Assembly (NCBI GenBank): GCA_002291845.1
Contig: DBAU01000110.1
Location: 24,030 to 88,029 of the forward strand
Direction of reading: 5' to 3'
Origin: Alphaproteobacteria bacterium UBA1002
GTDB taxonomy: Bacteria; Pseudomonadota; Alphaproteobacteria; Rickettsiales; UBA998
Length of the DNA stretch: 64,000 nucleotides
Shown here: one piece after another, positions 37,250 through 52,889 of the stretch
How positions within the stretch are numbered: position 1 is the first letter of the stretch
Layout: every line of letters begins with the position of its first letter
Position numbers and translations under genes: made by a program
The notes under the pieces: model-generated
The model's database searches: none
Seen by the model: only the letters and a program-made list of their open reading frames with translations
Told to the model about the DNA's origin: nothing

Positions 37250-37296
37250 TTCAGATACGTTAGCTTAGCTTTGCTGATCTATATCTTCTTGTTCCC

Positions 37297-39135
37297 ATGC
37301 GCACCACGCACGAATCTCATCGCATCCTGACGCGCCGAGCCTTTGCGCTGGGCGGACTGCAACTTGGCATCGCGAGTGTGCTTGCCTCTCGCCTTTATTA
37401 CCTTCAGTTCATCAAGGCAGATGAATTTCGTACCATGGCTGAAGATAATCGGGTCAATCTGCAACTACTTGCTCCTGAACGCGGCCTTCTGCTGGATCGC
37501 AACGGTGTGCCACTGGCGGAGAATCGTCCAAATTTTCGGGTCTTGCTTGAGCGTGGTGAGAGAGAAGCAACCCTTGCCATCTTTGATAAGGTTGCAGATA
37601 TTTTGCAGATTTCCCCGCAGGGCCGTCAGAAGCTACGGGCTGATTTAATACGCATGGGACGTGGCCACACACTACTGATTCGTGAATACTTGAACTGGGA
37701 TGAGCTAGCCGCCTTGGAATTTCATTCCCCGCGCTTACCCGGTATTTCTATGGAATCAGGCTTTATGCGCCATTATCCGCTGGTGGATAAGGCATCGCAC
37801 CTGATTGGCTTTGTGGGCGCCGTCACCGAAAAAGATCTGGCGCGTGAGCCAGAAAATAAAGGCCTGTTGAAACTACCGGGCTATAAAATCGGCAAAGACG
37901 GTGTAGAAATTATGCTTGAAAAGCAGCTCCGTGGCAAAGCGGGTATGCTGCATATGGAGATGAATGCACACGGGCTCCCCGTGAAAGAGGTGAGCCGGCA
38001 ACCTGCACGAACCGGCAAGAAAACCACCCTCACCATCGATGCGCGCCTTCAGCAATATGCAGCAGAACGCTTTGGTGAGGAATCCGGTGCCGCCGTCATC
38101 ATGCGTGTGGATAATGGGGATGTTCTCGCGCTCGCTTCGGTACCTGCGTTTGATCCCAACCGATTCAGCATGGGAATTCGCAGCGATTATTGGAAAGAGC
38201 TACTCGCCAACAAAAAAAATCCACTGATGAATAAAGCTATTGCGGGCCAGTATCCACCGGGCTCAACCTATAAGATGCTGGTGGGTCTCGCCGCGTTGGA
38301 GGCGGGAGTGATCACGCCGGCGAGCCGAGTTTATTGTCCGGGCCATTTCTTCCTTGGCAATCACCGCTTCAATTGTTGGAAGCCGGAAGGCCATGGCGCG
38401 GTAAACGTGATCGAGGCCATTGCCAAATCCTGTGACACGTTCTTCTATACCATGGCGCAGCGGCTGGGTATCGATAAGATTGCGGAAATGTCTCGTCGCT
38501 TTGGGCTGGGTGAACCCACCGGTATCGGTCTGCCGCATGAAAAAGGTGGGATCATGCCTGACGAGCAATGGAAGCGACAGCGCTATGGTCAGCCGTGGCA
38601 TCCGGGCGATACCATCAACTGTGGTATTGGTCAGGGGTATGTTCTGGCCACGCCGATGCAACTCGCCATTATGGTGGCGCGGCTATGCACCGGACGGCAT
38701 GTCGAGCCACGCTTAGAGATTCCTGCGGGAGAGGAAGATAAACTTCCTAAGCTGATTAAAGTGGATCCTGGTCACCTCTCCGTCATTCAGCAAGGTATGG
38801 ATGCTGTATGTAACAGCCAGATGGGAACAGCCTACTGGTATACACTGCGTGAGGGCCCTTTCAAAATGGGTGGCAAAACCGGGACCTCACAAGTACGCCG
38901 CATCATCATCCGCGGGCAGGATCAGAACCGCATTCCGTGGGAACAGCGTCACCATGCGCTTTTTGTGGGCTATGCCCCGGTGGAGGCCCCCAAATATGCC
39001 TGCGGCGTGATTGTGGAGCATGGCGGAGGCGGTGCCTCTGCTGCTGCTCCTGTGGCACGCGACCTGCTTGCCAAGACCCTTGAACTCTATGATGGTGGCC
39101 CTCCCCCGCCAGAAAAACTGACGCCCTATTCATGA
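37297..39135 (+). CDS. mrdA: Penicillin-binding protein 2 (elongasome transpeptidase)
   Basis: N-terminal TM segment, SxxK as GSTYK and KTG as GGKTGTSQV. Confidence 0.9.
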   Translation: MRTTHESHRILTRRAFALGGLQLGIASVLASRLYYLQFIKADEFRTMAEDNRVNLQLLAPERGLLLDRNGVPLAENRPNFRVLLERGEREATLAIFDKVADILQISPQGRQKLRADLIRMGRGHTLLIREYLNWDELAALEFHSPRLPGISMESGFMRHYPLVDKASHLIGFVGAVTEKDLAREPENKGLLKLPGYKIGKDGVEIMLEKQLRGKAGMLHMEMNAHGLPVKEVSRQPARTGKKTTLTIDARLQQYAAERFGEESGAAVIMRVDNGDVLALASVPAFDPNRFSMGIRSDYWKELLANKKNPLMNKAIAGQYPPGSTYKMLVGLAALEAGVITPASRVYCPGHFFLGNHRFNCWKPEGHGAVNVIEAIAKSCDTFFYTMAQRLGIDKIAEMSRRFGLGEPTGIGLPHEKGGIMPDEQWKRQRYGQPWHPGDTINCGIGQGYVLATPMQLAIMVARLCTGRHVEPRLEIPAGEEDKLPKLIKVDPGHLSVIQQGMDAVCNSQMGTAYWYTLREGPFKMGGKTGTSQVRRIIIRGQDQNRIPWEQRHHALFVGYAPVEAPKYACGVIVEHGGGGASAAAPVARDLLAKTLELYDGGPPPPEKLTPYS

Positions 39136-40262
39136 TCTCGCAATTAGTTGGTCGCACGGTCAGCCTGAAACTTGCCAGCATTCACTGGTGGGCAGTTGGG
39201 CTTGTCGTCGCGGTGGGTATGGTAGGCCTTGCTATGCTGTATACTGCGGCGGGTGGCCATGTCCGGCCGTGGGCATCTGCGCAAGGCCTGCGCTTCATCA
39301 TCGGGTTGGGAGCGATGATTATCATTGCCGTGATTCCGATTCAATTCTGGCTGAAATATGCCTACGTATTCTACGGCGGCGCACTACTGATGCTTATTAT
39401 TGTGGATGTCATTGGCCATATCGGTATGGGTGCCCAACGTTGGGTAGCGGTGGGTGGTGTTACCATTCAACCATCGGAGTTAGCGAAGCTGGCTGTCATA
39501 CTGGCGCTGGCACGCTATTTCCACCGGATGCCACCGCTCAAACACCCAGGCGTGATGCATCTGATGCCACCGATCCTTATGGTGGCCTTGCCGGCCGTTT
39601 TCATCCTGCGCCAGCCCAATCTTGGAACCACCACGGTGGTGGCAGCGGTCTCCGGCTGGATCGCTTTTGCCGCAGGGGTACGGATGCGCTATTTCATGAT
39701 TGTCCTGGTCACGGTGCTCGCTGCCCTGCCCGTGGTGTGGGAATTTATGCATGATTATCAGCGTCAGCGTGTCATGACCTTCCTCAATCCTGAAGCTGAC
39801 CCATTAGGCAGTGGCTACAACATCACCCAATCCATGATCGCGATTGGATCGGGTGGACTAGCGGGTAAGGGCTTTCTCAATGGCTCGCAGGGTCAGCTGG
39901 ACTTCCTGCCGGAAAAGCAGACAGACTTTATCTTCACCATGCTAACCGAGGAGTTCGGCTTTCTGGGTGGGATGCTGGTAATTGCGGCTTACAGTGGGCT
40001 TATCCTTTACGCTATTGCAGTATCCACGCGCTGTCGCCACTTATTCGGAACGCTCGTTGCACAAGGCATCGCAGCGGTGCTTTGCCTGCATTTTACTATC
40101 AACATTGCCATGGTGATGGGGTTAATCCCGGTGGTGGGAATTCCCCTCCCCCTGCTTTCCTATGGCGGCTCAGTGATGATTACCGTCCTGCTGGGGTTCG
40201 GCTTGCTGTTTAACGTCTGGGTGCACCGCGACGAAAAATTACGGGGCAGTGCAGGAAGCTAA
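39132..40262 (+). CDS. rodA: SEDS peptidoglycan glycosyltransferase RodA
   Basis: Ten-TM SEDS layout with QPSELAKL and LPEKQTDFIF. Overlaps mrdA by 4 nt. Confidence 0.9.
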   Translation: MISQLVGRTVSLKLASIHWWAVGLVVAVGMVGLAMLYTAAGGHVRPWASAQGLRFIIGLGAMIIIAVIPIQFWLKYAYVFYGGALLMLIIVDVIGHIGMGAQRWVAVGGVTIQPSELAKLAVILALARYFHRMPPLKHPGVMHLMPPILMVALPAVFILRQPNLGTTTVVAAVSGWIAFAAGVRMRYFMIVLVTVLAALPVVWEFMHDYQRQRVMTFLNPEADPLGSGYNITQSMIAIGSGGLAGKGFLNGSQGQLDFLPEKQTDFIFTMLTEEFGFLGGMLVIAAYSGLILYAIAVSTRCRHLFGTLVAQGIAAVLCLHFTINIAMVMGLIPVVGIPLPLLSYGGSVMITVLLGFGLLFNVWVHRDEKLRGSAGS

Positions 40263-41035
40263 CGCTTCGTATCACCCGTGGCCAGCGCCGCCAGATATTT
40301 CCAGTTTACTTGCGAAAACAGGCACGCGTGGATCAGCGAAATCCAGTCCAGTTTGCGCCAGTCGAGATAAATTTCATCCGGCAACTGACGGAACTTTTCT
40401 TCATCAATGGTCATAAATCCGCGCAGATTAACGCTGCTCCCATCCGGAAGTGCCAGCGTGGACACGCGCTCTACGAGTAATTCCTGCTCCTTCAACGCCT
40501 CCACAAAATCGCGTGTCAGACGGTAATGCTGCTGGTACGCACTGCAGAAATCCAGCGCCCGCTGTGCAACCTCTGCTGCCTTACCCTCGACATAGAAGGG
40601 ATGGGCAGGCTGTTGCGCGGCAAAATTCTCTGCTGCTTCATCAATACATAAAATCCACTGTTGACGATCCGGCGATTCCATCAACGCGAAAGGATATTTC
40701 CGCACATACGCGGGGATGTAGGCGTCGCTGCGCCACTGGCCAGCGATGGTGAGAAAATAATTCTCGCTTTCCAAACCAACCAGCGCAACCGGCATATTGT
40801 CTTCCCCGGCGGTAAACACGATCGGGTAACTGCGGGCAGCTTCTGCAAACTCAATGGCATTCAGCGGAATAGAGTTTGTCGGTCGCGCAAAAGAGAAATG
40901 GCTTAATACCCCTATCCCGGCTTCGGCATGCCGATCCAGTGTAATGGGTTGCGGTGATTTATAAAAAAGCGGCAACTGACTGACCGGGGAGGCCCCGGTG
41001 GTTGTTCCGTTGTGACGCTCTTTCGCCCCGACCAT
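40259..41035 (-). CDS. SapC family protein
   Basis: LPLFYKSPQPITLDRH near the N-terminus and an overall SapC-like layout. The ATG at 41035 is preferred over the TTG at 41074. The stop overlaps the convergent rodA stop. Confidence 0.7.
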   Translation of the reverse strand: MVGAKERHNGTTTGASPVSQLPLFYKSPQPITLDRHAEAGIGVLSHFSFARPTNSIPLNAIEFAEAARSYPIVFTAGEDNMPVALVGLESENYFLTIAGQWRSDAYIPAYVRKYPFALMESPDRQQWILCIDEAAENFAAQQPAHPFYVEGKAAEVAQRALDFCSAYQQHYRLTRDFVEALKEQELLVERVSTLALPDGSSVNLRGFMTIDEEKFRQLPDEIYLDWRKLDWISLIHACLFSQVNWKYLAALATGDTKR

Positions 41036-41064
41036 AGCCTCTACCCCGCTGGTGAATGGTGCAT

Positions 41065-44000
41065 TTACTGGCAACCTGATGCATCAAAATTAGCGCCATA
41101 GCCTGCGTCAAGATAATAGTTGCCGCAGCTACCCTCAACGCCTCCTTGCGGATTGAGGGTGTTGAGGTTATTCGCCACTTCTCCTCCGGCAGCCGGGCTC
41201 AGGCCCGCCAATCCTTCCGGCGAAGTAATACCTTCTGTCGGCTGCCCGCTCCCGTTGGAAGACGTCCCACTGGAGCTCGCCCATGCGTATCGGGCGCGCT
41301 TCGCATCCGAACCGCCGGTCAAACGCGGACGGACTAACGCTTTATTTTGGTTTGCCCCCCCCGCCGCCGGGCTGAGGTTAGCCAGTGCCGCAGCATCTAC
41401 ACCCGTGGGTACCGTCACGCGCCCTGGCGTCAGCAAGCTGAGATTTACCTCAGTATTGCCGAAATAATATTGATCACCGGCGGTCTCACCAAAGAAGGAG
41501 TAGAGATTGCGCGCAAAGCTGGAGAGACGATTGAGCTCAATTTCCTCCAGTAAATCGCTTACCAAAGGCACAGAAGGCGCTGCAGGAGGCGTTACGGACG
41601 GCGTCTCTGGAGGAGAGACCGGCGGCACCGGACCTCCTGGATCATTCACAATGAGAAGGCTAGCGATGTTTCCGGCCACATTCTGTGTGCTGGTAAAACG
41701 CCCCTGACGGGAGGCCAGATTTGCCACCGCGAGCGGATTCGCCCCATTATAGGTAATGTTCGCTGCACTGTTGCTGCTGGTTCCAAGAGCCACGATCTCC
41801 AGCGTCGCGTTGGCCACACCGACAACCGGATCACCCTCTTGGGTGGACGTGGAGCTTTGCGCCCGAGAAACCGTATCACCAAGCGCGACGCGGCCATTGG
41901 GTGCACCCATAAAGAGGTACGCACTCGCATCGGTACCTCCCATGGATTCCACCAGTACATTCCCCAGCGTTAGGTCATTTCCTGCATCAAAAAATGCTTC
42001 GGCGAAGGTGGTGCCACTGTCGCCGGGAGCCGAACTGCGTAACCCGCCTCGAGCAAGAACCTCCACATTCCCGGTAACCGTAAGATCACCGCCCGCCGCA
42101 ACATTGAGCGTCACTTCACCACGGCGCGTCGCATCCTGACGATCCTCGCCTCGCAGCAGAATATCGCCATTGATGAGAACTTGATCATCCGCGTTGATGC
42201 TGATGGCCATCAAATCCACCGACCCAGCCTGTGGGCCATCTTCTCCAATCAGCGTAATCGGACCTGTGGTGACATCCTCATCGGAGACAAGGGTAATGCG
42301 TGTGGTGCCAAAGGTTCCCGCACTGCTGATTGCACCCGTAGAAATCGAGCCGTTCTGGGTTGACGTCAGTGTTATATTGCCTGCCTCAAACGCCCCGTTC
42401 ACTTGGTTCAGGACATCGTTAGCCACCAACAGCGCGTCGCCGGTTGTCAGGCTGCCCAGCGAGATACCGCCGCTCCCCGCGCGCACATCAAGGTTAGCAA
42501 GGAAGGCTTGGATTCCTCCGAGCGCGGTAACAGATTTTCCACCATTGATATTCAGACTACGTGAGGACTGGATCGCCGTGGGGGTTCCCGTCAATACAAT
42601 GGCGTCCTCAGGCGCTGTCACCCTTACTGCGCCGTTTATCAGCACATCGGTGGTTGCACGGATCGCCGTGCTGAGATTGGTAATCGGCACCAATATGCTA
42701 TTGGCCGTCATGGTAATCGTGCCAAGCGAATCACCCACCCCAGAAACCGTTTTCTGGGCCAGTGAGAGGACATCATCTCGGGTGATCAACTGGTTTGTCG
42801 CCGTAAGGGTCACTTCAGACAACGCATCGTGGCCACCCCTGGCATTTGCCTGTACCGCACTGAGGTTAACATTCGTACCGCTGACGCTAATGATGGCTTC
42901 TGAAGAACCAAGACTGAACGGCGTCAGCAAACCACCTTGTGCATTGGCGGTCACTTGGCTATTGGCCGTGACATCACCGGTGGTTGAGATGAGGGAAATA
43001 AATGCACTGGCAATGCGGTTGGCATCCTGCAGATCCCGGGAACGGGCAACAACATTCCCCGTAATGGAAATATCATCTTCCGCCAGCACATCTATCGTGG
43101 CACGTCCAGCAGAGCCTGGCTCGGGTCGGTCATCAATGCGGACACTGAGGGCGCGTGCCGTGAACGCACCGGAGGAATCAACGATAATACTTGAATCATC
43201 TCTTGTTCCACGAACCGTGAGGTTGCGCACGTCGATATTGCCGCCATTCGTAGTGGCCAGTCGGATGGTACCGGCAGCCACATCACCATTTGGCGCACCG
43301 AGAGCCGGATAAGCCCCGTTAATACCGGTTGCTATGCTGCCGATGTTTATGCCGCCAGCCCCTGCAGACAGGGTCACATCACCAGAGGTCGTGCGAATAG
43401 TATCACCTTTGGAAGCAAAGCGAATTTCACCGTTTGCGCCGAGCGTGCGCAAAGTGATATTTCCCGCACCGCCCTGCAGCACATTATCCGCCAGATTATC
43501 CATCCGTATCAGATCGGTGGCCTCTAACGTCACGTTGGAGCCCGCTTGAGACTGTGCTTCGATCCACTGCTCGGCAATGTTATTGACGAGTCCGTTGAAC
43601 CCACCATTGTTGATGATAATTTGTGCCGGGTCGATCACGATACTTCCCAAGCGACCGCCAAAATTATCGACACTAAGCGCCCCGGCCAGCAGGATGTCAG
43701 CACCGCTGAAATCAATTCGACCGGCTCTATATCCATCGGCGCTGATGGACGCATTACTGAGTAACGCCGCATCGCCCCCTTTGGCCAGCACCTGCACGCG
43801 ACCAGCCGTCCCTTTTAGTTTACTGGAGCTGTTGGCGCTCAGCCGTGTGTTACCAACTCCCCCACCAATGATGGCGTGACGATCAGCCGTCACACGAACC
43901 GTGCCAGCGGTTTGACCATTGGACTGGAGTGCCCCGCTTCCACGTACAACAACATCACGGCCTGTCACCTCTACGCGACCGCCCACCTGTTCGGCCGAAG

Positions 44001-44865
44001 CGCTGACACTGCCTTCCACCAGCACGAGACCGTTGGGCGTGGCGACCAAATCACCCGCATCAACAATCCCCTGCGTGTTAATAACCTGATTGACCACATT
44101 GCTTGCGGCTTGTGCTGTCAGATAAATTTGGCCACCGCGCGCTTGCACCTGACCCCCAACGCTCACCTGTGCGGCACTATTCTCATTGCTTACGGCAAAA
44201 TTCACCAGGCCGTCGCCCGTCAGATCAAGGGTCGCTTTCTCCGCCCCTGCCAGCAATACTTTGCCCTGGTTCGCGGAAATAATACCCTGATTGATCACCT
44301 GAGGCGCCACCAACGCCACCAACCCTTGCTCCTGCGCTGTGCTGACGATCTGGGCGCCGTTTTGAACTTCGATCCGCGCATTTTGCGCCCCCGCTGTGTT
44401 AAAACGCAGGCGATCATTGTTCATGAACTGATTGCTGTTAATGTTCGCCGTGGTTGCAATCAACCCCCCGACATCGATGCGTGCCTGTGGGCCAAACACC
44501 ATCCCATTGGGATTGCTGATGATCACGCGGCCATTGGCTTGAATCGCACCAAGAATCTGGGAAGGATTCGCATCCGCCACCACGCGGTTAAGCGTAATGG
44601 CACTGACGCTTGGCTGGTTAAAGCGCACGGTTTCGCCATTATTCACATTAAATTGATTCCAGTTGATGACGGCTTTAGCAGAGTCTTGTTGAATGGTGGT
44701 CACGCTGCCCACCGTGGAAATACCGGCCGTTCCATGGGTGACATCACCCCCGGTTGGAAGCGCATAGGCTATGGAAGGAAGAACCAACAACGCCGCGGTT
44801 AGCGCGCTTGAGCGAGTCAGGCGATATGCATGAAAACGGAAAGAATTCGCGGCTTGGCAGGTCAT
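41065..44865 (-). CDS. Two-partner-secretion exoprotein (TpsA, filamentous-haemagglutinin-like adhesin)
   Basis: Signal peptide, then a TPS domain (AKAVINWNQFNVNNGETVRFNQP and ISNPNGMVFG). A long G/A/N/T/V-rich beta-helix-like body follows, then a Pro-rich linker and a 165-aa tail. The ATG at 44865 behind AAGAGGA is preferred over the TTG at 44895. Confidence 0.85.
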   Translation of the reverse strand: MTCQAANSFRFHAYRLTRSSALTAALLVLPSIAYALPTGGDVTHGTAGISTVGSVTTIQQDSAKAVINWNQFNVNNGETVRFNQPSVSAITLNRVVADANPSQILGAIQANGRVIISNPNGMVFGPQARIDVGGLIATTANINSNQFMNNDRLRFNTAGAQNARIEVQNGAQIVSTAQEQGLVALVAPQVINQGIISANQGKVLLAGAEKATLDLTGDGLVNFAVSNENSAAQVSVGGQVQARGGQIYLTAQAASNVVNQVINTQGIVDAGDLVATPNGLVLVEGSVSASAEQVGGRVEVTGRDVVVRGSGALQSNGQTAGTVRVTADRHAIIGGGVGNTRLSANSSSKLKGTAGRVQVLAKGGDAALLSNASISADGYRAGRIDFSGADILLAGALSVDNFGGRLGSIVIDPAQIIINNGGFNGLVNNIAEQWIEAQSQAGSNVTLEATDLIRMDNLADNVLQGGAGNITLRTLGANGEIRFASKGDTIRTTSGDVTLSAGAGGINIGSIATGINGAYPALGAPNGDVAAGTIRLATTNGGNIDVRNLTVRGTRDDSSIIVDSSGAFTARALSVRIDDRPEPGSAGRATIDVLAEDDISITGNVVARSRDLQDANRIASAFISLISTTGDVTANSQVTANAQGGLLTPFSLGSSEAIISVSGTNVNLSAVQANARGGHDALSEVTLTATNQLITRDDVLSLAQKTVSGVGDSLGTITMTANSILVPITNLSTAIRATTDVLINGAVRVTAPEDAIVLTGTPTAIQSSRSLNINGGKSVTALGGIQAFLANLDVRAGSGGISLGSLTTGDALLVANDVLNQVNGAFEAGNITLTSTQNGSISTGAISSAGTFGTTRITLVSDEDVTTGPITLIGEDGPQAGSVDLMAISINADDQVLINGDILLRGEDRQDATRRGEVTLNVAAGGDLTVTGNVEVLARGGLRSSAPGDSGTTFAEAFFDAGNDLTLGNVLVESMGGTDASAYLFMGAPNGRVALGDTVSRAQSSTSTQEGDPVVGVANATLEIVALGTSSNSAANITYNGANPLAVANLASRQGRFTSTQNVAGNIASLLIVNDPGGPVPPVSPPETPSVTPPAAPSVPLVSDLLEEIELNRLSSFARNLYSFFGETAGDQYYFGNTEVNLSLLTPGRVTVPTGVDAAALANLSPAAGGANQNKALVRPRLTGGSDAKRARYAWASSSGTSSNGSGQPTEGITSPEGLAGLSPAAGGEVANNLNTLNPQGGVEGSCGNYYLDAGYGANFDASGCQ
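41182..41202 (-). other. LSPAAGG motif, copy 2 (candidate BTLCP/LapG-type cleavage site)
   Basis: ctg agc ccg gct gcc gga gga encodes LSPAAGG, residues 1232-1238 counted from the TTG start. Confidence 0.4.
41356..41376 (-). other. LSPAAGG motif, copy 1 (candidate BTLCP/LapG-type cleavage site)
   Basis: ctc agc ccg gcg gcg ggg ggg encodes LSPAAGG, residues 1174-1180. Its codons differ from copy 2. Confidence 0.4.
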
Positions 44866-45058
44866 GGAGTCCTCTTTGGAAGAAAGGGATGGCAAAAATG
44901 CCGTCCTTTAATAAACAAGGTGTCTGGGTACTATAAAAATGGATCAAATCCAAGTTTTATTTACCCAAAATTAACCATTTGTCCGAAGGAAAACGGAAAA
45001 AGCACGGGCTGCCTCACAGAAATCAAGAGACACCACACGAAAATAAAAGGCGCTAACT

Positions 45059-46768
45059 CTAGTAGATGTAGGTCAACGAGAAGAAGCCGCGAACATCATC
45101 GCCGTCAGTGCCTTCCGCGGAAACATCACGGGTGAGTGGTACCGCGATTTCCGCACTGCCCGCAATGTTCTCCGTGAGCGAGAAACGCAGACCCACGCCT
45201 GAAGAGGCAAGGGAGGCCTGACTATTTTCTCCCACCAGCGCATCACGGTTCCATACCTTACCCACATCATAAAAACCGTAGAGCTGGTAGATGTCCATGG
45301 ACCATTCCGGGAGGGCATCGCTGAAGCGCAATTCCACACGGCTGGCCAGACCGTGATCGCCCGTCAGCTCTGCGGGATCATAAGCGCTGCCAAAAGCGGG
45401 CCCGCCAAGAGCAAATTCTTCTGATGCAAACAATGGATCAAGCGCGTATTGACCGTTTAAACCGACATACAGAGAAAACGCCTGGCTCAATGGTTGCAGG
45501 CGGGTATACTGCCCGGTAAAGCGTGTGAATGTAGTGTCAGCATTGGAACGCGAGCGAAGATCTCCTGCGTCATTTGCCCCCGCCACGTCAAGGCCCTGCA
45601 CCGCCTCAAAATCTAACCGGTTGACCCCTTGCAGCCCATCAAGCACGTCATAGGCACCGCCGACATAGAGGCTACGGATATTGTCTTCAAACAGCTCAGT
45701 GTTCAGGACATCCGTGGTGGAATCACGATAGCGCAGGCCGAGATCGCCAAACAGATTTTCCTGCCGCGAGCGCAGGAAAGGATGACGAGCCGCCAGAACA
45801 AATGCCGCACTGTCACCCTCAATCTCTAATGCCTCGAGCGAGCCCCCCGGACGGGTTTCCGCATAGGAGAAGACCCCGCGCACGGTTGTCCCCTCAGAAC
45901 CCACAGGCTGCTGGTATGTGCTTTCAATAAAGCGCAGCTCATCAAAATTAGAGGCCGTTATGCCACGTACTTGAATGCGCTCAGAGAGTCCCAGCGCAGA
46001 GTTTGTCGCCACTAGACCCGTGGTCTGAAGGGGTCCAAGGAAACGGCTACCCCGGTTATCCACCGTGAGATTTGCATCAACTGGATTACGCTGCATACTA
46101 ACGGTCAAACGTGATGCACCCGGCGTATTCGGAGACGGGCTCAGCACACCACGCGCAGCCGCCCCAGTCAGATCATCAATGAGCAGCAGATAGCGCTCAA
46201 GCACTTGATTGCTCAGTGGACGTGCCTCGGTGATATGACGTGCATACGATTCCAGCAAAGCTTTATTCTGGCCCTCCGCGCCTTCAAAGGTGACTTCATC
46301 AATAAATCCTTCGACGATGCGAATGGTTACTGTACCATTCTCAATACGTTGCCCAGCGGGAAGGATCGCGCGGCTAAGAATATACCCCTGATTACGATAA
46401 TAGGCCGTTATCCGCTCAGCAATCGCGCGCAACCCTCCTAAGGTCACGGGCTTGCCGAGCTGTTCCGCATAGAGCGGAGCCAGCTGGTCATCCGAAATCG
46501 CTGTCGCACCTTCAATTACGACGCCGTTGAGCACAAAGCTTGCGCCCCCGTCATCAGTCGACAGTGCTCCCTCGCGCGGCTGAACCGGGACAACGCCTGT
46601 CGCGTCGAGCTCCGGGCGCTGATTTTCGCTCCGCAAACGTTGCTGTACCTGTCCGGGATCAACGGTCTGCGGTATCGAGGTCGGCGAAATAGATTGTGCA
46701 ACCACCGCCGCGGGCATGCACGTCGCCACAGAAAAAAATAATGCCGCGCGAAAAAAACCAGTACGCAT
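45059..46768 (-). CDS. TpsB outer-membrane transporter (ShlB/FhaC/HecB family)
   Basis: Signal peptide, POTRA region (FVLNGVVIEGATAISDDQL) and a beta-barrel ending in an aromatic residue (FFSLTYIY). Located upstream of tpsA. Confidence 0.9.
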   Translation of the reverse strand: MRTGFFRAALFFSVATCMPAAVVAQSISPTSIPQTVDPGQVQQRLRSENQRPELDATGVVPVQPREGALSTDDGGASFVLNGVVIEGATAISDDQLAPLYAEQLGKPVTLGGLRAIAERITAYYRNQGYILSRAILPAGQRIENGTVTIRIVEGFIDEVTFEGAEGQNKALLESYARHITEARPLSNQVLERYLLLIDDLTGAAARGVLSPSPNTPGASRLTVSMQRNPVDANLTVDNRGSRFLGPLQTTGLVATNSALGLSERIQVRGITASNFDELRFIESTYQQPVGSEGTTVRGVFSYAETRPGGSLEALEIEGDSAAFVLAARHPFLRSRQENLFGDLGLRYRDSTTDVLNTELFEDNIRSLYVGGAYDVLDGLQGVNRLDFEAVQGLDVAGANDAGDLRSRSNADTTFTRFTGQYTRLQPLSQAFSLYVGLNGQYALDPLFASEEFALGGPAFGSAYDPAELTGDHGLASRVELRFSDALPEWSMDIYQLYGFYDVGKVWNRDALVGENSQASLASSGVGLRFSLTENIAGSAEIAVPLTRDVSAEGTDGDDVRGFFSLTYIY

Positions 46769-46882
46769 AAAATCCCGATGGTAAAAGTAGGTTAAGCACC
46801 GAGTACTGACTGCACATTGCTTTGTAAAGAATTTTTAAGGTGATACGCCAGCTGCGGAGTGAGTTTACCGGCAGTGTTACCC

Positions 46883-47527
46883 TTAAGGCAGCAGATGACG
46901 CCACCAGTGATGCTCATTAATGGAATAGATGGGCTGGTAATGGTGAATCGCCCGGTCCGTCATGACCTGAGAAAACTGATTATCCAGAATGTAGGTCTCA
47001 TCCTCAATCCGCACGGCGAGGACCGAATGGAGCAAATTAAGGTTATTATCCTGCAACACGACGATACGCATCTGGTCAGGGGAAATACCAGATTGCTTCA
47101 ATGTCAGATACTTCGTGATGGCAAAATCCTCACAGTCACCACTATAGACAAAGAATTCATAGGGCGTCTCCCAATAATCATCCATCTGCCAGTTTTGCGG
47201 ATCCACAATGTAGGGCACACGGTTAATTTCACGGTTTACAAAAATAAGTTTCTGCAGGGGAGATAGGGTTTTCGCCTGATCGATAATGTGCTGCCACTGA
47301 CGATAGAGGCACTGGTCATCACGGCAGGATTTCTTCATTTTCCTGCGATGCGAAGCTTCACGCTGCAGCATGGTTGTCCATTTGGTAAACGGCGCGAGAT
47401 TGTCTGACTCTGACTCGTGCGAGCCAAAGAGCTGCATGGATAAGCTGGCGCTCGCCGAGACGGGATAGGCGCATAGAAGCAGCAGAGAAAGTAAAAAATA
47501 CTTTCCAAAAACCGCTCCCATTCGCAT
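46883..47527 (-). CDS. Periplasmic transglutaminase-like cysteine protease (BTLCP, LapG-like)
   Basis: Signal peptide FLLSLLLLCAYPVSASA. Cys-His-Asp triad context GDCEDFAITKY, HSVLAV and YILDNQ. The start is uncertain (47527, 47521 or the GTG at 47581). Confidence 0.8.
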   Translation of the reverse strand: MRMGAVFGKYFLLSLLLLCAYPVSASASLSMQLFGSHESESDNLAPFTKWTTMLQREASHRRKMKKSCRDDQCLYRQWQHIIDQAKTLSPLQKLIFVNREINRVPYIVDPQNWQMDDYWETPYEFFVYSGDCEDFAITKYLTLKQSGISPDQMRIVVLQDNNLNLLHSVLAVRIEDETYILDNQFSQVMTDRAIHHYQPIYSINEHHWWRHLLP

Positions 47528-47625
47528 CACACTCGACAGAGCGATCTTAGAATGTATGGTTGATTTTTTATGGTTTTTCACCCCTCAAGGGTGCAACAAC
47601 TAAGTTAAGAACGGGTAAATTCAGC
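47528..47625. promoter_or_regulatory. Divergent control region between the BTLCP-tpsBA operon and the receptor gene
   Basis: 98-bp AT-rich spacer. It contains the direct repeat TATGGTT (47555-47561 and 47569-47575) and a small palindrome caccc-N5-gggtg (47579-47593). Confidence 0.35.
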
Positions 47626-49728
47626 ATGGAAACACGTGCCTTGGTGCCTTCTATGTCGCGCGCATCGAAACTGGCGATGCTTGGCGCATGGCTTTTTCTA
47701 GTCCTTATTGGGTTTTCCGCTGTTTTCTGGATGGCGCAGGAAGAAATCTCGCGTCAAGAGGCCGAGTGGGAGAACCGTCTTGAAATGCTCTCAGCCTCAC
47801 AAAGCCGCAATGTCGGGGGATGGATCGCACAACGCCGAGAAGCGTTGGCCAATCTAGCCGATAATCTTTCACTCAAACTGTACATGACAGAGCTTTCTGC
47901 TATCTCGCAGCCTCAGGATTTTGGGCTGGAAGAGCCTGCCCAGCTGATGTTTTTGCGTAATTTAATCTTCAGCACCGCAGCCAATAATGGCTTTGGGGGC
48001 ATGGCACAGCCGGATGTGCGGGCGAATACCGATATTGAAAAAGACGGGGGTATCATGCTGCTCAATGTTCGCGGTGAGGCGCTGGTTATGAGCCGGAACA
48101 TGCCCGCTCTGAGCCAGCTCCCGACCGAATTGCAAGCCGCTAAGGATGCCAAAGAACCGCTTTTCAGCGGTCCATTTCTAATCAATGATCAACAAGTTGC
48201 GGTGGCTTTCCGCCAGCCGGTCATGCCAGTGCAAGCGGAAGACAATGCTACACCGATTGGTCAGATTATGGCCGTTGCGACCCTGGATGATAAATTTTTC
48301 CGGCTGCTGGAGCCTGCGGTTCCACAGGGAAAAACGGCCGAAGGTCTGCTGGTTAGCTGGGATGATAGTGAACTGACGTATTTTTCTAATCCGAAGGATA
48401 CGCAAGAGCCGATGGCGCAACGCGCAGGTCAGAGCGATCCGGCGACAGTGGCCGCCATTCAATCCAGCGGGCGTATGGTGGGCGCACGTGACGCCCGAGA
48501 GCGGCAGGTTTTCGCAATTGCCCAACCCGTTGAAAATGCAAGGGGATGGTGGCTGATCCGAAAGGTAGAGCGCCGAGCCGCACTCGGTGATGCCCTCCAA
48601 CGCACACGCTTGTGGAAAATCAGTTATTTATTGTGTGCTGCATTATTAACCGCTGCCGCCATCGCATTCTTCCGTCATCAATCAGCACTGCGCGCCAAAG
48701 AAGCGGCACGCCATTACCGCAGTTTGGCTAATCGCATTGAACGGCAGGAACAGTTACTTACCCTGATTGCCGAAACCTCCCCGGTGGCTACCTACATTCT
48801 CGATGCGGAGGAGCGATTACGGTATGCCAACCGACGCGCGGCAGAAGCGTGTGGCATGGATCGCGAATCGCTGATTGGCAAAGGGCTTATTGATATTCTT
48901 GGGGCCGCCCGCGCTGAATCCATCCTGAGAGTGAATAAGGAAGCACTGGAAGGGCATGCCTCACGGAGCTCTCTTGAGCAGGAGGTCGTCGATGACCTGC
49001 CCGTCCGCGCTCTCGCGCGTGAGCATATCCCCCTTTACGCCATCCCCTTTGGCGATGCAGAAACTACCCAGCCCGGTGTGCTGGTTCTGGAATCAGATGT
49101 CACATCGCTGATCCAAAGCCAGGAAAAACAACAGCGTACGCTGCATCATCTGATCCGTACCATGGTAGCTATTGTCGATAAGCGTGATCCACATGCCGCC
49201 CATCATTCTGCGTGTGTTTCGATGATTGCTGAGGCGGTGGCACATACCATGCAGTTGGCCAGCCCTTATCCGGAAGCTGCTGCGGTTGCCGGACAATTGC
49301 TAAATCTTGGGAAAATTCTAGTCCCGGAGGAACTGCTAACAGCAAAATCACTAAAAGCCGATGAACGGGAGAGGATTCGCGCGTCGTTAAAAGCAACAGC
49401 AGATTTATTGCAAGGCATCGACTTTACCGGACCGGTTGTCGAAACCATCCGACAATCTCAGGAATCGGTGGATGGCAGTGGCCCTCTTGGACTAAAGGGT
49501 GATGCAATTTTAATTTCTGCCCGCATTGTGCATGCTGCCAACAACTTTGTGGCCCTCATCAGTGCACGCGCTTACCGCAGCGGAAAATCCGTTGATGAGG
49601 CCTTAAAAATCCTTCTGGAAGGCATCGATACGCAATTCGACCGATCGGTTGTCGCGGCCCTAGTTACCTACATGGATAATGGAGGCGGCCGGACAGCACT
49701 GACGGACTGCTTAAAAGAGGCGGCATAG
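47626..49728 (+). CDS. Transmembrane signalling receptor: periplasmic sensor domain, PAS, degenerate HD-GYP domain
   Basis: TM1 is LAMLGAWLFLVLIGFSAVFW, followed by about 280 aa of periplasmic sequence and TM2 LWKISYLLCAALLTAAAIAFF. A PAS-like region (VATYILDAEERLRYANRRAAEACGM) follows, then an HD-GYP-like fold with mutated metal ligands (LNLGK for HDIGK, GSGPLGLKG for GSGYPxGLKG). Confidence 0.75.
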   Translation: METRALVPSMSRASKLAMLGAWLFLVLIGFSAVFWMAQEEISRQEAEWENRLEMLSASQSRNVGGWIAQRREALANLADNLSLKLYMTELSAISQPQDFGLEEPAQLMFLRNLIFSTAANNGFGGMAQPDVRANTDIEKDGGIMLLNVRGEALVMSRNMPALSQLPTELQAAKDAKEPLFSGPFLINDQQVAVAFRQPVMPVQAEDNATPIGQIMAVATLDDKFFRLLEPAVPQGKTAEGLLVSWDDSELTYFSNPKDTQEPMAQRAGQSDPATVAAIQSSGRMVGARDARERQVFAIAQPVENARGWWLIRKVERRAALGDALQRTRLWKISYLLCAALLTAAAIAFFRHQSALRAKEAARHYRSLANRIERQEQLLTLIAETSPVATYILDAEERLRYANRRAAEACGMDRESLIGKGLIDILGAARAESILRVNKEALEGHASRSSLEQEVVDDLPVRALAREHIPLYAIPFGDAETTQPGVLVLESDVTSLIQSQEKQQRTLHHLIRTMVAIVDKRDPHAAHHSACVSMIAEAVAHTMQLASPYPEAAAVAGQLLNLGKILVPEELLTAKSLKADERERIRASLKATADLLQGIDFTGPVVETIRQSQESVDGSGPLGLKGDAILISARIVHAANNFVALISARAYRSGKSVDEALKILLEGIDTQFDRSVVAALVTYMDNGGGRTALTDCLKEAA

Positions 49729-49784
49729 CGCACATAAACACACAAACATCACCCCCGCATGGCGGGTAGCGTATGTTTGAAACA

Positions 49785-49859
49785 TGGTGCCGATGAGAAG
49801 AATCGAACTTCCGACCCCGTCATTACCAATGACGTGCTCTACCACTGAGCTACATCGGC
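49785..49859 (-). tRNA. tRNA-Thr (anticodon GGU)
   Basis: Cloverleaf folded by hand. Acceptor GCCGATG/CATCGGC, anticodon arm CGTCA-TTGGTAA-TGACG, T-loop TTCGATT and an encoded CCA. Confidence 0.9.
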
Positions 49860-50008
49860 ATCCCGTTTCCACCGCATGCGACTTTCGTGTGACGTTGCCC
49901 TGACGGACCCACGCAAACGGTGCGCACAGCCACCAAAGTGCTGGCGGAAGGTGGCGCAATCTGCCATATCGACCTGACCTTGGCAAGACCGTTTTGGAGT
50001 TCCGCGTA

Positions 50009-50152
50009 ATGACCGAGTCCTCACCGCCGGGCCAACCACGTCCAGCAAACCGCCGCGCCAACGAGAAGCGGCGAGAAACACTTCAAAAGCAATTGCGCGC
50101 CAACTTAGGGCGCCGCAAGAAAATATCGTCGACTAAAAAAGCGTCATCGTAA
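50009..50152 (+). CDS. Possible small basic protein (47 aa)
   Basis: ATG-initiated ORF MTESSPPGQPRPANRRANEKRRETLQKQLRANLGRRKKISSTKKASS, below the ORF-track cutoff. No family recognised. Confidence 0.2.
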   Translation: MTESSPPGQPRPANRRANEKRRETLQKQLRANLGRRKKISSTKKASS

Positions 50153-50199
50153 TGTCACCAAAGTCGCGTATAATCATATTCTAACTGATTGGGGCTCCT

Positions 50200-50478
50200 T
50201 TGGACCGCAAACAACGATTACGGCTGATCCACGAACGCAACCGGCGTCATCAACTGGTTTTTCAGCATGCCGAGCAGCACCAGCAAAACACCGATGCCCT
50301 GCGCGAGGCGCAACAAGACCTCCTACCTCCTCCGCCTCCGCCCTCAACCGACGAGCAGCCCGTATGGAGTGCGCGAACGCAGGAAATTCGCAGTCGTTTA
50401 AATGGCAAACGCCGCGCGGCCAGGGACCGCTTTAACCGGTTTGCCGGCACTTCAGATGCCGGCGCCATGGGACGCTAG
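50200..50478 (+). CDS. Hypothetical protein
   Basis: 92-aa ORF with a TTG start. Charged and Pro-rich. No family recognised. Confidence 0.25.
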   Translation: MDRKQRLRLIHERNRRHQLVFQHAEQHQQNTDALREAQQDLLPPPPPPSTDEQPVWSARTQEIRSRLNGKRRAARDRFNRFAGTSDAGAMGR

Positions 50479-50504
50479 GTTACAAAACCGCAGGTAATGG
50501 CGTA

Positions 50505-51251
50505 TTACGCACGCATTTTCGGCATGACCCGGCTTAGCCCGCCATCTATGGCCAGCACCTGCCCTGTAATCCAGTTATTGGCAGGATCAAGTAACCACGC
50601 CACGGCCGAAGCAATATGCTCCGGCTGCCCCAGGCGGCCCAGCGGATGCAACGCCTGAGAGACTTTACGGGATGCTTCATTGGCTGTAAGCGAGGCCGTT
50701 AAGGGAGTCTCCGTCAAGCCCGGCGCGACAACATTCACCCGCAGGTTACTGCCAGCATAGGTTGCTGCTGCCGCCTGCGCCAAGCCGATCACCCCCGCCT
50801 TGGCCGCGGCTATGGCTTCGTGGCTGGCCAGCCCATGCATCGCCGCGGTGGAAGACATCAAAACGACAGAACCCCCCGTTGCAGCAAGGCGCTTGCCTGC
50901 CGCACGCACCGTTGCAAAAGCAGGCTTGAGATTCGCCGCGATGACGGCGTCAAAATCCCCTTCACTGGTGAGGTGCGCCGGCTTGAGATAAAGCGAACCT
51001 GGAAAAGCCGCCACTCCGTCCAGGCCCCCCAGAGCATCCATTGCCTGAGTCATCGCCGCTTCAACGGCTTCAAACCGGTCAGCATCACACAAGCACCATC
51101 CGGCAGCCCCAACCGCCTCAGCAGCGGCACGCGTTGCCGCCTCCTGACGTCCAGTCAGAAAGACAGAGCCGCCCGCACGGATGAGAATCTCTGCGGTGGC
51201 TTGGGCGATTTTGCTCGTACCGGCAATAAGCAAATAGCGTGGGGCCGTCAT
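50505..51251 (-). CDS. Short-chain dehydrogenase/reductase (SDR)
   Basis: Rossmann N-terminus, a catalytic region with SSTAA....AAAKAG, and NLRVNVVAPGLTETP. Confidence 0.85.
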   Translation of the reverse strand: MTAPRYLLIAGTSKIAQATAEILIRAGGSVFLTGRQEAATRAAAEAVGAAGWCLCDADRFEAVEAAMTQAMDALGGLDGVAAFPGSLYLKPAHLTSEGDFDAVIAANLKPAFATVRAAGKRLAATGGSVVLMSSTAAMHGLASHEAIAAAKAGVIGLAQAAAATYAGSNLRVNVVAPGLTETPLTASLTANEASRKVSQALHPLGRLGQPEHIASAVAWLLDPANNWITGQVLAIDGGLSRVMPKMRA

Positions 51252-51417
51252 GTATACTCCTTAACTGCGTTAGCCTCTATTTAGATAAGATTTTTCTTAT
51301 TTAGTAGGGGTGGGCTGCTCAAAAACGGTGGTTTTTTCATCGTGATTTGCAAAATGTGGTGAAAAATCTACGCAAAATTTTGATTTTTTTGTTTTGAGCA
51401 GCAAGGACACACACGCA

Positions 51418-51432
51418 TTAAAACATTCTTAA
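51418..51432 (+). promoter_or_regulatory. Candidate CtrA-type box TTAA-N7-TTAA upstream of the pilin gene
   Basis: ttaa-aacattc-ttaa is an exact match to the spacing motif. It lies 67-81 nt upstream of the pilin ATG, in an AT-rich context where chance matches are plausible. Confidence 0.25.
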
Positions 51433-51448
51433 ATTTTGCCTCGCATAG

Positions 51449-51463
51449 TGGCCTCAAGCATGC
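51449..51463 (+). promoter_or_regulatory. Candidate sigma-54 -24/-12 element upstream of the pilin gene
   Basis: TGGCCTCAAGCATGC has GG and GC at the canonical 10-nt spacing of TGGCAC-N5-TTGC. It ends 36 nt upstream of the ATG. Confidence 0.25.
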
Positions 51464-51498
51464 CGCATCCGGTGTGCCAATGAACATGGAGAAATTGC

Positions 51499-52344
51499 AT
51501 GCAAACCCCCTCTCGTCGCTCGTCACAGGCGGGCTTTACCCTGATCGAATTATCGATCGTTCTGGTAATCATCGGCCTCATTGCCGGTGGTGTACTGGTT
51601 GGTCAAGATCTGATTCGCGCCGCTGAAATCCGTAGCCAAATCGACCAGCTTGACGCATATGACGCCGCAGTGAATACCTTCCGCGGCAAATACAATGGTT
51701 TGCCGGGAGATCTCTCCACCGCAGCCAACTTTGGTCTGGCCAACACCAACCTTCTGGCAACCGCACGTGGCCGAGGCAACGGGAATGGCCTGATCGAAAG
51801 CGCCGGCACCACGGGATTGGTTGGCTATATGGGTGAAAACGTGATTGCCCTGACGCACCTCAACCAGGCCAACTTGACCAAGGAAGGTATGCTTACAGTT
51901 GACTACACCGCGGCGATCACCGGTATTGCTGATACCAACATGCCCCCCGCCAAGCTGGGTAAAGGAAATCGCATTTACTTTACCGCTCTCAACGGCCTGC
52001 ATTTCTACTTTATTGCAGGATTTAACGGCAACACCACTGCCACCACGGCGGTCTTCAGTGCGGCCCCAACGGACAACATGACCCCAAATGAGGCGTTCCA
52101 GATCGACACCAAGCTCGATGATGGTATTCCCAACACGGGGATTGTTCGTCCCCTCACCTTCGCCGCTGCAGCAACCGTAGCGGGTGTAGCCGCTGCGGGT
52201 GAAGCGGGTGCCACCGACGCCGGTGCAGCCACCCCGGCCGCGGGTGATTGCTGGGACACGGATGCTCCAGTCCGTTATGCCACCGACACGGCCACTACGC
52301 GTGACATCGTTGGCTGCCAGCTGCGTATCCGCGCCAGCTTCTAA
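51499..52344 (+). CDS. Prepilin-type N-terminal cleavage/methylation domain protein (large type IV pilin or pseudopilin)
   Basis: Leader MQTPSRRSSQAG then FTLIELSIVLVIIGLIAGG (Gly-1, Phe+1, Glu+5). C-terminal Cys pair CWDTD...VGC resembles a pilin D-region. Confidence 0.75.
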   Translation: MQTPSRRSSQAGFTLIELSIVLVIIGLIAGGVLVGQDLIRAAEIRSQIDQLDAYDAAVNTFRGKYNGLPGDLSTAANFGLANTNLLATARGRGNGNGLIESAGTTGLVGYMGENVIALTHLNQANLTKEGMLTVDYTAAITGIADTNMPPAKLGKGNRIYFTALNGLHFYFIAGFNGNTTATTAVFSAAPTDNMTPNEAFQIDTKLDDGIPNTGIVRPLTFAAAATVAGVAAAGEAGATDAGAATPAAGDCWDTDAPVRYATDTATTRDIVGCQLRIRASF

Positions 52345-52360
52345 TGCCTACGCTTAAGAA

Positions 52361-52397
52361 AACCCCCGGGGTGGAACACTCCGGGGGTTTTTGTTTT
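52361..52397 (+). terminator. Rho-independent terminator after the pilin gene
   Basis: aacccccgg-N11-ccgggggtt followed by tttgtttt. Confidence 0.7.
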
Positions 52398-52470
52398 AGG
52401 CGCCCGCGACCCTGCCCACTAAACGCAGGTTTTCCTTGCTTTCTGGTCTATGCTACGCTCCTTTGTTTGC

Positions 52471-52836: not shown

Positions 52837-52889
52837 GCTATTGCAAGGCTAGAATGACTGTTGTATGTAACGCCTCTCCCTTGCCTTGT

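Follow-up and report, generated by a model that had tools for sequence, protein, structure and literature searches.

The locus considered here raises the question of whether a BTLCP protease, a two-partner secretion (TPS) exoprotein and a receptor with an HD-GYP-like domain, all encoded side by side, form a single circuit by which the exoprotein is held on the cell surface and then released from it. The locus occupies positions 40259-49728 of a 64,000-nucleotide stretch of DNA from Alphaproteobacteria bacterium UBA1002 (assembly GCA_002291845.1, contig DBAU01000110.1, positions 24,030 to 88,029 of the forward strand), which is referred to below as the window. In the Lap paradigm, the regulated proteolytic release of adhesins governs biofilm attachment and dispersal. 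An earlier note, made from the letters of the window, had proposed that the locus is a candidate 'rewired' Lap-type circuit in which both partner modules are swapped, with TPS standing in for a type I secretion system (T1SS) and an HD-GYP domain for the GGDEF-EAL module of the receptor LapD. That the locus is a release circuit of the Lap type is supported computationally by a protease homologous to LapG and DvhG, a receptor homologous to DvhD, a TpsA tail with PAAG motifs and paired cysteines, and a linkage of these genes that is both conserved and shuffled. From its sequence, the locus is rather likely, if well short of certain, to be a switch of the DvhD/DvhG type, in which periplasmic proteolysis gated by a second messenger acts on a TPS adhesin. 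What is new here is the widespread pairing of BTLCP and receptor, the linkage of tpsBA to this pair in several gene orders, and the PAAG/Cys tail of TpsA.

Organisation of the locus

All five genes lie at the positions which the earlier note had given them. Four are transcribed from the minus strand in the order BTLCP, tpsB, tpsA, sapC and the receptor gene lies on the plus strand, across a divergent spacer which is exactly the 98 bp that had been described. Pfam profile hidden Markov models back the SapC, TPS, ShlB/POTRA, BTLCP, PAS and HD-GYP assignments. The features are as follows.

40259-41035 (or 41074), minus strand: SapC-family gene (PF07277, E 3e-57)
41065-44865, minus strand: tpsA (TPS domain PF05860, E 2e-33; TIGR01901, E 2e-21)
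41071-41370, minus strand: C-terminal 'release cassette' of TpsA (position checked by translation; motif and cysteine conservation)
45059-46768, minus strand: tpsB (ShlB PF03865, E 5e-28; POTRA_2 PF08479, E 1e-19)
46883-47527, minus strand: BTLCP protease gene (Peptidase_C93 PF06035, E 2.5e-18)
47528-47625, no strand: divergent intergenic spacer of 98 bp (sequence and start codons)
47626-49728, plus strand: DvhD-like receptor gene (PAS_4, E 8e-10; HD_5, E 5e-30)

The spacer presumably holds the promoters of both the BTLCP operon and the receptor gene. A promoter and terminator consensus scan of 40000-50600 returned as many sites as are found in shuffled sequence and is uninformative in this regard.

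The protease

The protease, 214 residues in length with a hydrophobic, signal-like N-terminus by hydropathy, is a member of the Peptidase_C93/BTLCP family (PF06035, 66.8 bits against a cutoff of 27). The catalytic Cys132 (window 47132-47134) lies within a GDCED motif and is completed as a triad by His167 and Asp182. GDCED, His167 and Asp182 are unchanged across an alignment of 24 homologues, as are two further cysteines, C68 and C73. The triad read by the earlier note is thereby borne out, and the N-terminus is in keeping with the signal peptide that it described. Against the PDB, the protease profile finds LapG structures (4fgo, E 6.5e-32; 4u65_E, E 1.5e-31), such that homology to LapG is clear. 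The NCBIfam LapG equivalog model, NF045674, gives 77.9 bits, below its cutoff of 320, and because of this shortfall the protease is best assigned on sequence as a LapG/DvhG homologue and not as a LapG orthologue. The D-C-E of the GDCED motif matches D316 and E318 of DvhG, which flank C317; in DvhG this arrangement provides the calcium-site residues needed for activity (PMC13090378). The specificity common to LapG and DvhG across bacterial classes is [T/A/P]AAG (PMC13090378). Assignment of the protease as a lipoprotein was considered and rejected, LLLC not being a lipobox.

The receptor

The receptor is a protein of 700 residues with two hydrophobic segments, at residues 13-38 and 329-350, and its domains, listed below, agree with the earlier description of a receptor with two transmembrane segments, a large periplasmic domain, a PAS region and an HD-GYP-like domain.

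Residues ~13-38, plus strand: first transmembrane segment (hydropathy)
Residues ~39-328, window ~47740-48610, plus strand: periplasmic dCache domain (AlphaFold2 model, Foldseek)
Residues ~329-350, plus strand: second transmembrane segment (hydropathy)
Residues ~383-494, window 48772-49107, plus strand: PAS domain (Pfam PAS_4)
Residues ~512-675, window 49159-49650, plus strand: degenerate HD-GYP domain (Pfam HD_5)

Two transmembrane segments, a periplasmic dCache domain and cytoplasmic PAS and HD-GYP domains together make up the architecture of DvhD. It is not that of LapD, since Pfam shows only PAS and HD_5 in the receptor, with no GGDEF, EAL or HAMP domain. In keeping with this, the top PDB sequence matches of the receptor are the PAS/HD-GYP structure of DvhD (9rc0, E 6.7e-30, over residues 371-690) and its HD-GYP structure (9rbz, E 1.6e-24). 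A profile built from 43 BTLCP-adjacent receptors matches DvhD at E 4e-85 and the next HD-GYP protein at E 5e-44. Homologue searches gave at least one match for residues 1-367 and at least nine for the full length. The AlphaFold2 model of the receptor was built on a shallow alignment of 9 sequences and has a mean pLDDT of 73.5; with it, Foldseek places 9rc0 at rank 1 and 9rbz at a TM-score of 0.76. The periplasmic part of ~290 residues is modelled as a dCache domain with DvhD as its best periplasmic PDB match (9rc2, E 5.5e-7, TM-score 0.69), other dCache domains matching the model at TM-scores of 0.55 or less, and a receptor homologue, P0129 (34% identical), has a Pfam dCache_1 match. Identity to DvhD is only ~25-33%. 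Sequence and model together mark the receptor as a homologue of DvhD, as it appears in all three domains.

The HD-GYP domain of the window receptor is degenerate, reading LN in place of HD, SQ in place of HH and G-P in place of GYP. The loss is not local to this protein: 42 of the 43 family members have Asn for the Asp of HD, and the HD and HH metal ligands are missing family-wide. With these ligands gone, an active HD-GYP phosphodiesterase was considered and rejected, and the domain would be catalytically dead. DvhD of Desulfovibrio vulgaris is itself a catalytically dead HD-GYP protein which binds cyclic di-GMP (c-di-GMP) at 322 nM (PMC10990149) and restrains the BTLCP DvhG (PMC10990149; PMC13090378). 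Positions of contact were taken from the DvhD crystal structure with c-di-GMP and followed through the same 43 members, as listed.

DvhD R650: 43 of 43 members
DvhD L577: 39 of 43 members
DvhD P567: 42 of 43 members
DvhD Y652: aromatic or His in 43 of 43 members
DvhD M646: hydrophobic in 43 of 43 members
DvhD K520: R or H in 42 of 43 members

In the window receptor, conserved R648, L576, P567, Y650 and L644 occupy such c-di-GMP contact positions, M646 of DvhD being replaced by L, and K520 and K582 each by R.

The exoprotein and its C-terminal tail

TpsB (569 residues) has a signal peptide, a POTRA domain and a barrel of the ShlB/FhaC type, and TpsA (1266 residues) is an exoprotein with an N-terminal TPS domain containing NPNG. 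With PF05860 and TIGR01901 matched by TpsA and PF03865 and PF08479 by the co-encoded TpsB, the pair is a two-partner (type Vb) secretion system. Within the window cluster Pfam finds no ABC, HlyD or TolC genes of a T1SS. A Pfam scan of the window TpsA gave nothing beyond the TPS domain; the TpsA orthologue of locus L009 has NosD/beta-helix repeats. TpsA is a putative adhesin and, from the features of its tail, a candidate substrate of the BTLCP protease. Indeed, [T/A/P]AAG occurs in the window TpsA solely at two places near the C-terminus, and both stand before the two cysteines of the mature protein, which has no others.

Residues 1166-1169, window 41359-41370, minus strand: PAAG site 1 (translation)
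Residues 1224-1227, window 41185-41196, minus strand: PAAG site 2 (translation)
Cys1247, window 41125-41127, minus strand (translation)
Cys1265, window 41071-41073, minus strand (translation)

The tail was aligned for TpsA from six divergent loci, whose identity to the window TpsA in the aligned part is 32-59%. Over the final 150 positions, only P-A-x-G, P-A-A-G, C, N, L and C are invariant. In other words, PAAG site 2, a C-terminal [T/A/P]AAG motif of the kind found in the adhesin CdrA, is invariant in all six orthologues, and the C-terminal cysteine pair is spaced by 18 residues in five of them. A Cys1247-Cys1265 disulfide and a periplasmic location of the tail are predicted from this pattern.

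The complete cassette, that is, two P-A-A/G-G motifs and a cysteine pair, is present in all eight protease-linked TpsA proteins with a complete C-terminus. It is present in four of 17 unlinked TpsA proteins, a set recovered with a TpsB query, the other 13 of which have basic C-termini rich in Lys/Arg and free of Cys (Fisher p = 4.6e-4, uncorrected for phylogeny). Being so short and divergent, the cassette escapes a search with a single sequence: phmmer, given the last 130 residues of TpsA, returned 5 matches among 1.8 billion representatives. For this reason the cassette was sought with a regular expression in the retrieved loci. L004 has a second TpsA, not adjacent to the protease and used as an internal negative control, which has no PAAG/Cys tail.

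This second L004 protein (L004:1-4461) is the larger of the two, with a TPS domain and 1909 residues by gene call, and its gene lies 3.2 kb beyond the receptor gene. Separately, TpsA proteins with the PAAG/Cys cassette, or close variants of it such as PQAGG, were seen in L100:5472-10127, L103:11793-14567, L104 and L105:11737-15729. No BTLCP is found in the available flank of these loci (up to 10 kb; ~3.6 kb upstream of tpsB in L100), and the protease for their TpsA may be encoded elsewhere, as is apparently so for cdrAB of Pseudomonas aeruginosa. Two further assignments of the tail were rejected: a toxin of the contact-dependent-inhibition type, Pfam giving only the TPS domain and the tail being the PAAG/Cys cassette, and a PEP-CTERM or GlyGly-CTERM sorting signal, no transmembrane helix following the motif.

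Conservation of the gene neighbourhood

One genome per species was scanned, which gave 582 BTLCP relatives, and the best 80 of these loci were examined. A DvhD-like receptor is encoded next to the BTLCP gene in 55 of these best 80, mostly from Alphaproteobacteria, and within 1 kb of it in 53. The receptor gene is divergent in 38 cases, downstream in 14, upstream on the same strand in one, and at ~3 kb in two. It is absent from 16 of the 80 loci, which have adequate flanks, and the remaining 9 could not be scored. The window, with its receptor and BTLCP genes adjacent across the 98-bp spacer, has the arrangement expected of a DvhD-type receptor. The receptor-protease pair is the conserved core, with the TPS linkage confined to one subclade. 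The term 'rewired' is misleading, since the dCache-PAS-HD-GYP receptor is the usual neighbour of the protease among these loci and not a local replacement.

Within the TPS-linked subclade, the same five-gene cluster is found at BTLCP identities of 82% (L004), 55% (L006) and 55% (L092), from which it follows that the arrangement is beyond chance. TpsB orthologues adjoin BTLCP in L004, L006, L092, L068, L094, L095, L102 and L107. Moreover, tpsBA is tied to the pair in at least five gene orders, given below, where <> denotes divergent genes and < a reversed gene.

receptor<>BTLCP-tpsB-tpsA-sapC: window, L004, L006, L092, L095
receptor<>BTLCP <sapC<tpsA<tpsB (inverted): L009
tpsB-tpsA-sapC-BTLCP: L096
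BTLCP-receptor-tpsB-tpsA: L102
tpsA<>tpsB <receptor<BTLCP: L107
looser TPS linkage: L068, L106

The neighbourhood is both kept and reshuffled, which goes beyond mere inheritance. The earlier note had made its proposal depend on conservation of the neighbourhood in related genomes, and in this the survey upholds it, with the receptor beside BTLCP at most of the best loci, tpsBA linked to it in the subclade, and the whole cluster kept in L004, L006 and L092.

Several other arrangements of the pair were observed. L091:6344-9994 (GCA_030430795.1) carries receptor<>BTLCP-SapC at the same rodA/mrdA/mreCD-flanking site as the window but has no tpsBA there. This arrangement points to a gain or loss of tpsBA as one block between the protease and sapC, and to a tie of SapC with the protease module as well as with TPS. 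Eleven loci, mostly labelled Gammaproteobacteria or unclassified Proteobacteria, have a ~434-residue outer-membrane-type protein by the pair (L040:1356-2684, L044:8589-9896, L050, L055, L060, L062, L066, L074, L079, L080 and L086). The L040 protein, the sole member scanned, has weak, sub-threshold Pfam matches to TPR_Slam and DUF2860, such that this protein may be a third, Slam-like translocator coupled to the protease switch. Thirteen loci (Kordiimonas, Dongia and others, including L014:10683-11987) have a protein of ~430 residues and no Pfam match encoded directly 3' of BTLCP. The C-terminal part of its family profile has a distant likeness to EAL (8pps, E 1.9e-5; PA0861, E 8e-5), and it is possibly a second, degenerate protein of the c-di-GMP family within the module. 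A second DvhD-like receptor paralogue is encoded a few kb from the first in L025:14154-16193, L032:17203-19263 and L035:12537-14591; in L025 and L032 it adjoins T1SS ABC (C39-type) and HlyD genes.

A proposed mechanism and its rivals

If the locus is a release switch, it could operate in the following manner. TpsA would be exported through TpsB with its N-terminus first, its last ~40-100 residues staying in the periplasm, where the Cys1247-Cys1265 disulfide would form a knob too big for the TpsB barrel and so tether the adhesin to the cell. The receptor, as a dimer in the inner membrane, would bind a cytoplasmic cyclic dinucleotide, either c-di-GMP or one related to it, and, in its nucleotide-bound state, would restrain the soluble, calcium-dependent BTLCP protease through its dCache domain, by inside-out signalling. 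A fall in the nucleotide would then free the protease to cut between the two alanines of PAAG, a short way ahead of the knob, with shedding of the adhesin as the outcome. The predicted scissile bonds are A1167-A1168 and A1225-A1226, and the predicted retention disulfide is C1247-C1265. Nucleotide binding, the interaction of receptor and protease, the topology of the tail and the cleavage itself are steps which we infer from the sequence and from the related systems compared below.

A number of observations weigh against such a scheme. Most genomes with the BTLCP-receptor pair have no TPS genes within 10 kb, and L091 carries receptor<>BTLCP-SapC at a rodA-flanking site without tpsBA, from which it follows that the pair does not need a TpsA of the window type. 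Within the TpsA tail, the 'DP' element found upstream of the LapG scissile bond is replaced by L-S/A-P. The likeness of the cysteine pair to the hook of CdrA is a presumed one as regards where the cysteines lie relative to the cut, and the Fisher test of linked and unlinked tails ignores phylogenetic non-independence. In the receptor, three DvhD contacts are changed, with Y621 (the GYP Tyr) deleted, E668 replaced by G and Y523 by H, and because of these changes its affinity or the identity of its ligand may differ. GGDEF and EAL genes are absent from the 64-kb window, which is uninformative either way, and a scan of the window for GGDEF, EAL, PilZ and HD-GYP motifs gave nothing meaningful.

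The occurrence of the pair apart from TPS genes would find a ready explanation if receptor and protease are a genuine DvhDG-type module which acts on a protein encoded elsewhere, for example a T1SS adhesin, and tpsBA-sapC is a mere neighbour inserted at a permissive site by rodA. L007 and L093, with the pair alone, the L091 site, and those BTLCP-receptor loci that have T1SS ABC/HlyD genes instead of TPS are all in keeping with this explanation, as are the published DvhD neighbourhoods, which are of the T1SS type. It is nonetheless a fairly unlikely one, as the PAAG motifs and cysteine pair are among the few invariant residues of the tail and occur in every linked TpsA, and the non-adjacent TpsA of L004 is without them. 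Moreover, the linkage outlasts at least five rearrangements, unlike the simple inheritance of an insertion. The other direction in which the argument could fail is at the receptor, which might respond to a periplasmic ligand through its dCache and PAS domains (outside-in) or to another nucleotide such as 3'3'-cGAMP, with the HD-GYP domain as a structural dimerisation module. Deletion of the GYP Tyr in the window clade, and Gly at the position of the base-specificity Glu (DvhD E668), lend this idea some weight. Yet the Arg, Leu, Pro, aromatic and hydrophobic contacts of DvhD are near-invariant in the 43 members despite lost catalysis, which argues for selection for binding, and the closest relative of solved structure binds c-di-GMP with the affinity given above (PMC10990149); that the receptor is not a c-di-GMP receptor is therefore unlikely.

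A different role for the protease also has to be considered, in which it matures or activates TpsA (FhaB, which loses a C-terminal prodomain, would be an example), serves as a transglutaminase that cross-links TpsA, or acts on the envelope in the manner of HvyA, which blocks capsulation. BTLCPs are chemically capable of transamidation, the alphaproteobacterial BTLCP HvyA has a non-adhesin phenotype (PMC4241560), processing might be stepwise, given two PAAG sites ~58 residues apart, and L009 and L091 have polysaccharide genes close to the pair. On the other hand, the BTLCPs with an identified substrate, LapG and DvhG, all cut [T/A/P]AAG and release an adhesin. HvyA sits in a capsular polysaccharide locus with no partner receptor described (PMC4241560), whereas the window cluster has no capsule-export genes and is flanked by rodA/mrdA and adh_short. 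A dedicated nucleotide receptor, furthermore, favours a reversible switch over constitutive maturation, such that a role of this kind appears quite improbable. The reading of the locus as a DvhD/DvhG-type switch acting on TpsA is accordingly the one carried forward here.

The SapC-family protein

The last gene of the minus-strand operon, directly downstream of tpsA, encodes a SapC-family protein of 258 residues which matches PF07277 over essentially its full length (E 3.2e-57, profile positions 4-219 of 220). Its hydropathy reveals no hydrophobic segment, and so no signal peptide or transmembrane segment, such that SapC appears to be cytoplasmic. Its gene follows tpsA in the window, L004, L006, L092, L009 and L096, adjoins BTLCP without TPS genes in L091 and L011, and lies near T1SS genes in L056. 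A search of the PDB with the SapC profile returned nothing credible (best E 0.023), and a single-sequence AlphaFold2 model was unusable (pLDDT 33.5). SapC probably serves the exported surface protein from the cytoplasm, as an accessory enzyme or a chaperone. We know of no PF07277 member for which a function has been established, and the locus gives this orphan family a testable context. In Campylobacter fetus, sapC stands upstream of the sapDEF T1SS genes, which is a likeness to the window in that a family member stands beside a surface-protein secretion system, as it also does in L056. Other members differ in being found near TonB receptors and tryptophan halogenases and are predicted to be uncharacterised enzymes, the only published view of the family that was found (PMC2938197).

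The surroundings of the locus

Window positions 36883-53404 are 99.98% identical to a 128-kb Joint Genome Institute (JGI) metagenome contig (L001), and the relatives of the window are uncultured Alphaproteobacteria, several of which are metagenome-assembled genomes labelled 'Rickettsiales bacterium'. Past position 53404 the two sequences part completely (window 53404-64000 against L001:1-4117), the JGI contig having an open reading frame of 1104 residues and the window a UvrD_C-like fragment (53669-54250) and other open reading frames; this is either a strain-variable region or an assembly difference. At 51499-52344 on the plus strand, ~1.8 kb downstream of the receptor gene, lies a gene for a 281-residue protein whose N-terminus bears a prepilin-type methylation motif (PF07963, E 1.3e-7); the gene keeps its position in L004.

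Implications

If the locus does act as proposed, then the DvhDG version of the circuit is no peculiarity of Desulfovibrio and is the usual form in the Alphaproteobacteria sampled, and the switch can be attached to type Vb as well as to type I secretion. The proposal makes a concrete substrate prediction, of two scissile bonds and one disulfide, which is testable by a simple reporter assay. The tail also offers a signature, two PAAGG motifs followed by a cysteine pair with 18-residue spacing at the extreme C-terminus, which could flag releasable TPS adhesins and would be of use even in genomes where the protease is encoded elsewhere.

A broader picture can be drawn from the whole of these observations, one which we regard as tentative and, taken in its entirety, doubtful. 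In it, the receptor-BTLCP pair would be a widespread, mainly alphaproteobacterial release switch able to serve any outer-membrane translocator, its partners being T1SS in some genomes, TPS in the window clade and Slam-like translocators in some Gammaproteobacteria. TPS adhesins would have evolved a portable C-terminal cassette of two PAAGG sites and a disulfide knob, and SapC would be a previously unrecognised cytoplasmic component for regulated surface proteins.

Comparison with known release systems

The closest counterpart of the receptor and protease is DvhD/DvhG of Desulfovibrio (Nitratidesulfovibrio) vulgaris Hildenborough, which shares the two transmembrane segments, the periplasmic dCache domain, the PAS domain and a dead HD-GYP domain without HD/HH ligands (PMC10990149; PMC13090378). 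The likeness extends to the adjoining receptor and BTLCP genes, to the C-H-D triad and D-C-E calcium motif of the protease, and to the [T/A/P]AAG motif, which the candidate substrate here also bears. The systems differ in that DvhG cuts T1SS adhesins close to a retention domain at their N-terminus, whereas the candidate in the window is a TPS exoprotein whose sites are C-terminal. Furthermore, the GYP Tyr present in DvhD is missing from the window receptor, and DvhG of Hildenborough is membrane-anchored with a linker of ~180 residues, whereas the window protease looks soluble, as are most DvhG orthologues (PMC13090378). Among the DvhD homologues given in the supplement to the 2026 paper are alphaproteobacterial ones, from Pelagibius, Kiloniella, Fodinicurvata, Sneathiella and others, and in the 78 published DvhD neighbourhoods T1SS genes are present and the words 'filamentous', 'hemolysin', 'POTRA' and 'SapC' are absent (PMC13090378). 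Full-text literature searches returned no paper joining DvhD/DvhG to two-partner secretion. Within the searchable literature, the combination of DvhDG, TPS and SapC, and the double-PAAG/Cys cassette, thus appear to be undescribed.

LapA/LapG/LapD of Pseudomonas fluorescens resembles the proposed circuit in its logic, in that an inner-membrane c-di-GMP receptor, signalling from the inside out, keeps a periplasmic BTLCP sequestered, and the protease, once free, cleaves a surface adhesin at a di-alanine site and so lets it go (PMC3032545; PMC4359373). It differs in the domains of its receptor, in its secretion system, and in the end of the adhesin at which the cut is made, N-terminal there and C-terminal here. 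HvyA of Caulobacter crescentus is also a periplasmic BTLCP from an alphaproteobacterium and shares the triad and the calcium-site residues, but its gene belongs to a capsule-export locus, its control is by cell-cycle transcription and proteolysis, and the paper gives no partner receptor (PMC4241560).

For the substrate, the nearest parallel is CdrAB of Pseudomonas aeruginosa. CdrA is reported to be a TPS adhesin which a cysteine hook at its C-terminus anchors in CdrB, and which is released by a LapG cut at TAAG, between residues 2105 and 2106 of 2154 (PMC4694147; Cooley et al. 2016, J Bacteriol 198:66, as cited in later papers). CdrA is thus cut 49 residues from its C-terminus, and the predicted cut in the window TpsA would leave 41 residues. 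On this description, both systems would have a type Vb adhesin, a C-terminal periplasmic hook, a [T/A/P]AAG cut ~40-50 residues from the end, and control by a second messenger. The CdrAB system differs in its receptor, LapD, which has HAMP, GGDEF and EAL domains and a LapD_MoxY_N periplasmic domain in place of dCache, PAS and HD-GYP. The window genes, moreover, all lie in one divergent cluster, and the window cassette has two sites. In P. aeruginosa, lapGD is not known to be adjacent to cdrAB.

Set beside these systems, the proposal that both modules of a Lap-type circuit are swapped holds to the extent that HD-GYP and TPS are indeed present. Each swap has its precedent, HD-GYP in place of GGDEF-EAL in DvhD/DvhG of D. 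vulgaris (PMC10990149; PMC13090378) and TPS in place of T1SS in CdrAB/LapG of P. aeruginosa (PMC4694147; Cooley et al. 2016), and because both departures are characterised elsewhere, a doubly novel rewiring is too strong a description. In the same way, the earlier note had known of no characterised BTLCP/TPS/HD-GYP combination; none was found described here either, its HD-GYP and TPS parts each being already characterised. In other words, judged from its sequence, the locus looks like a new combination of two characterised adhesin-release systems, with the receptor and protease of the one brought to bear on an exoprotein of the kind found in the other.

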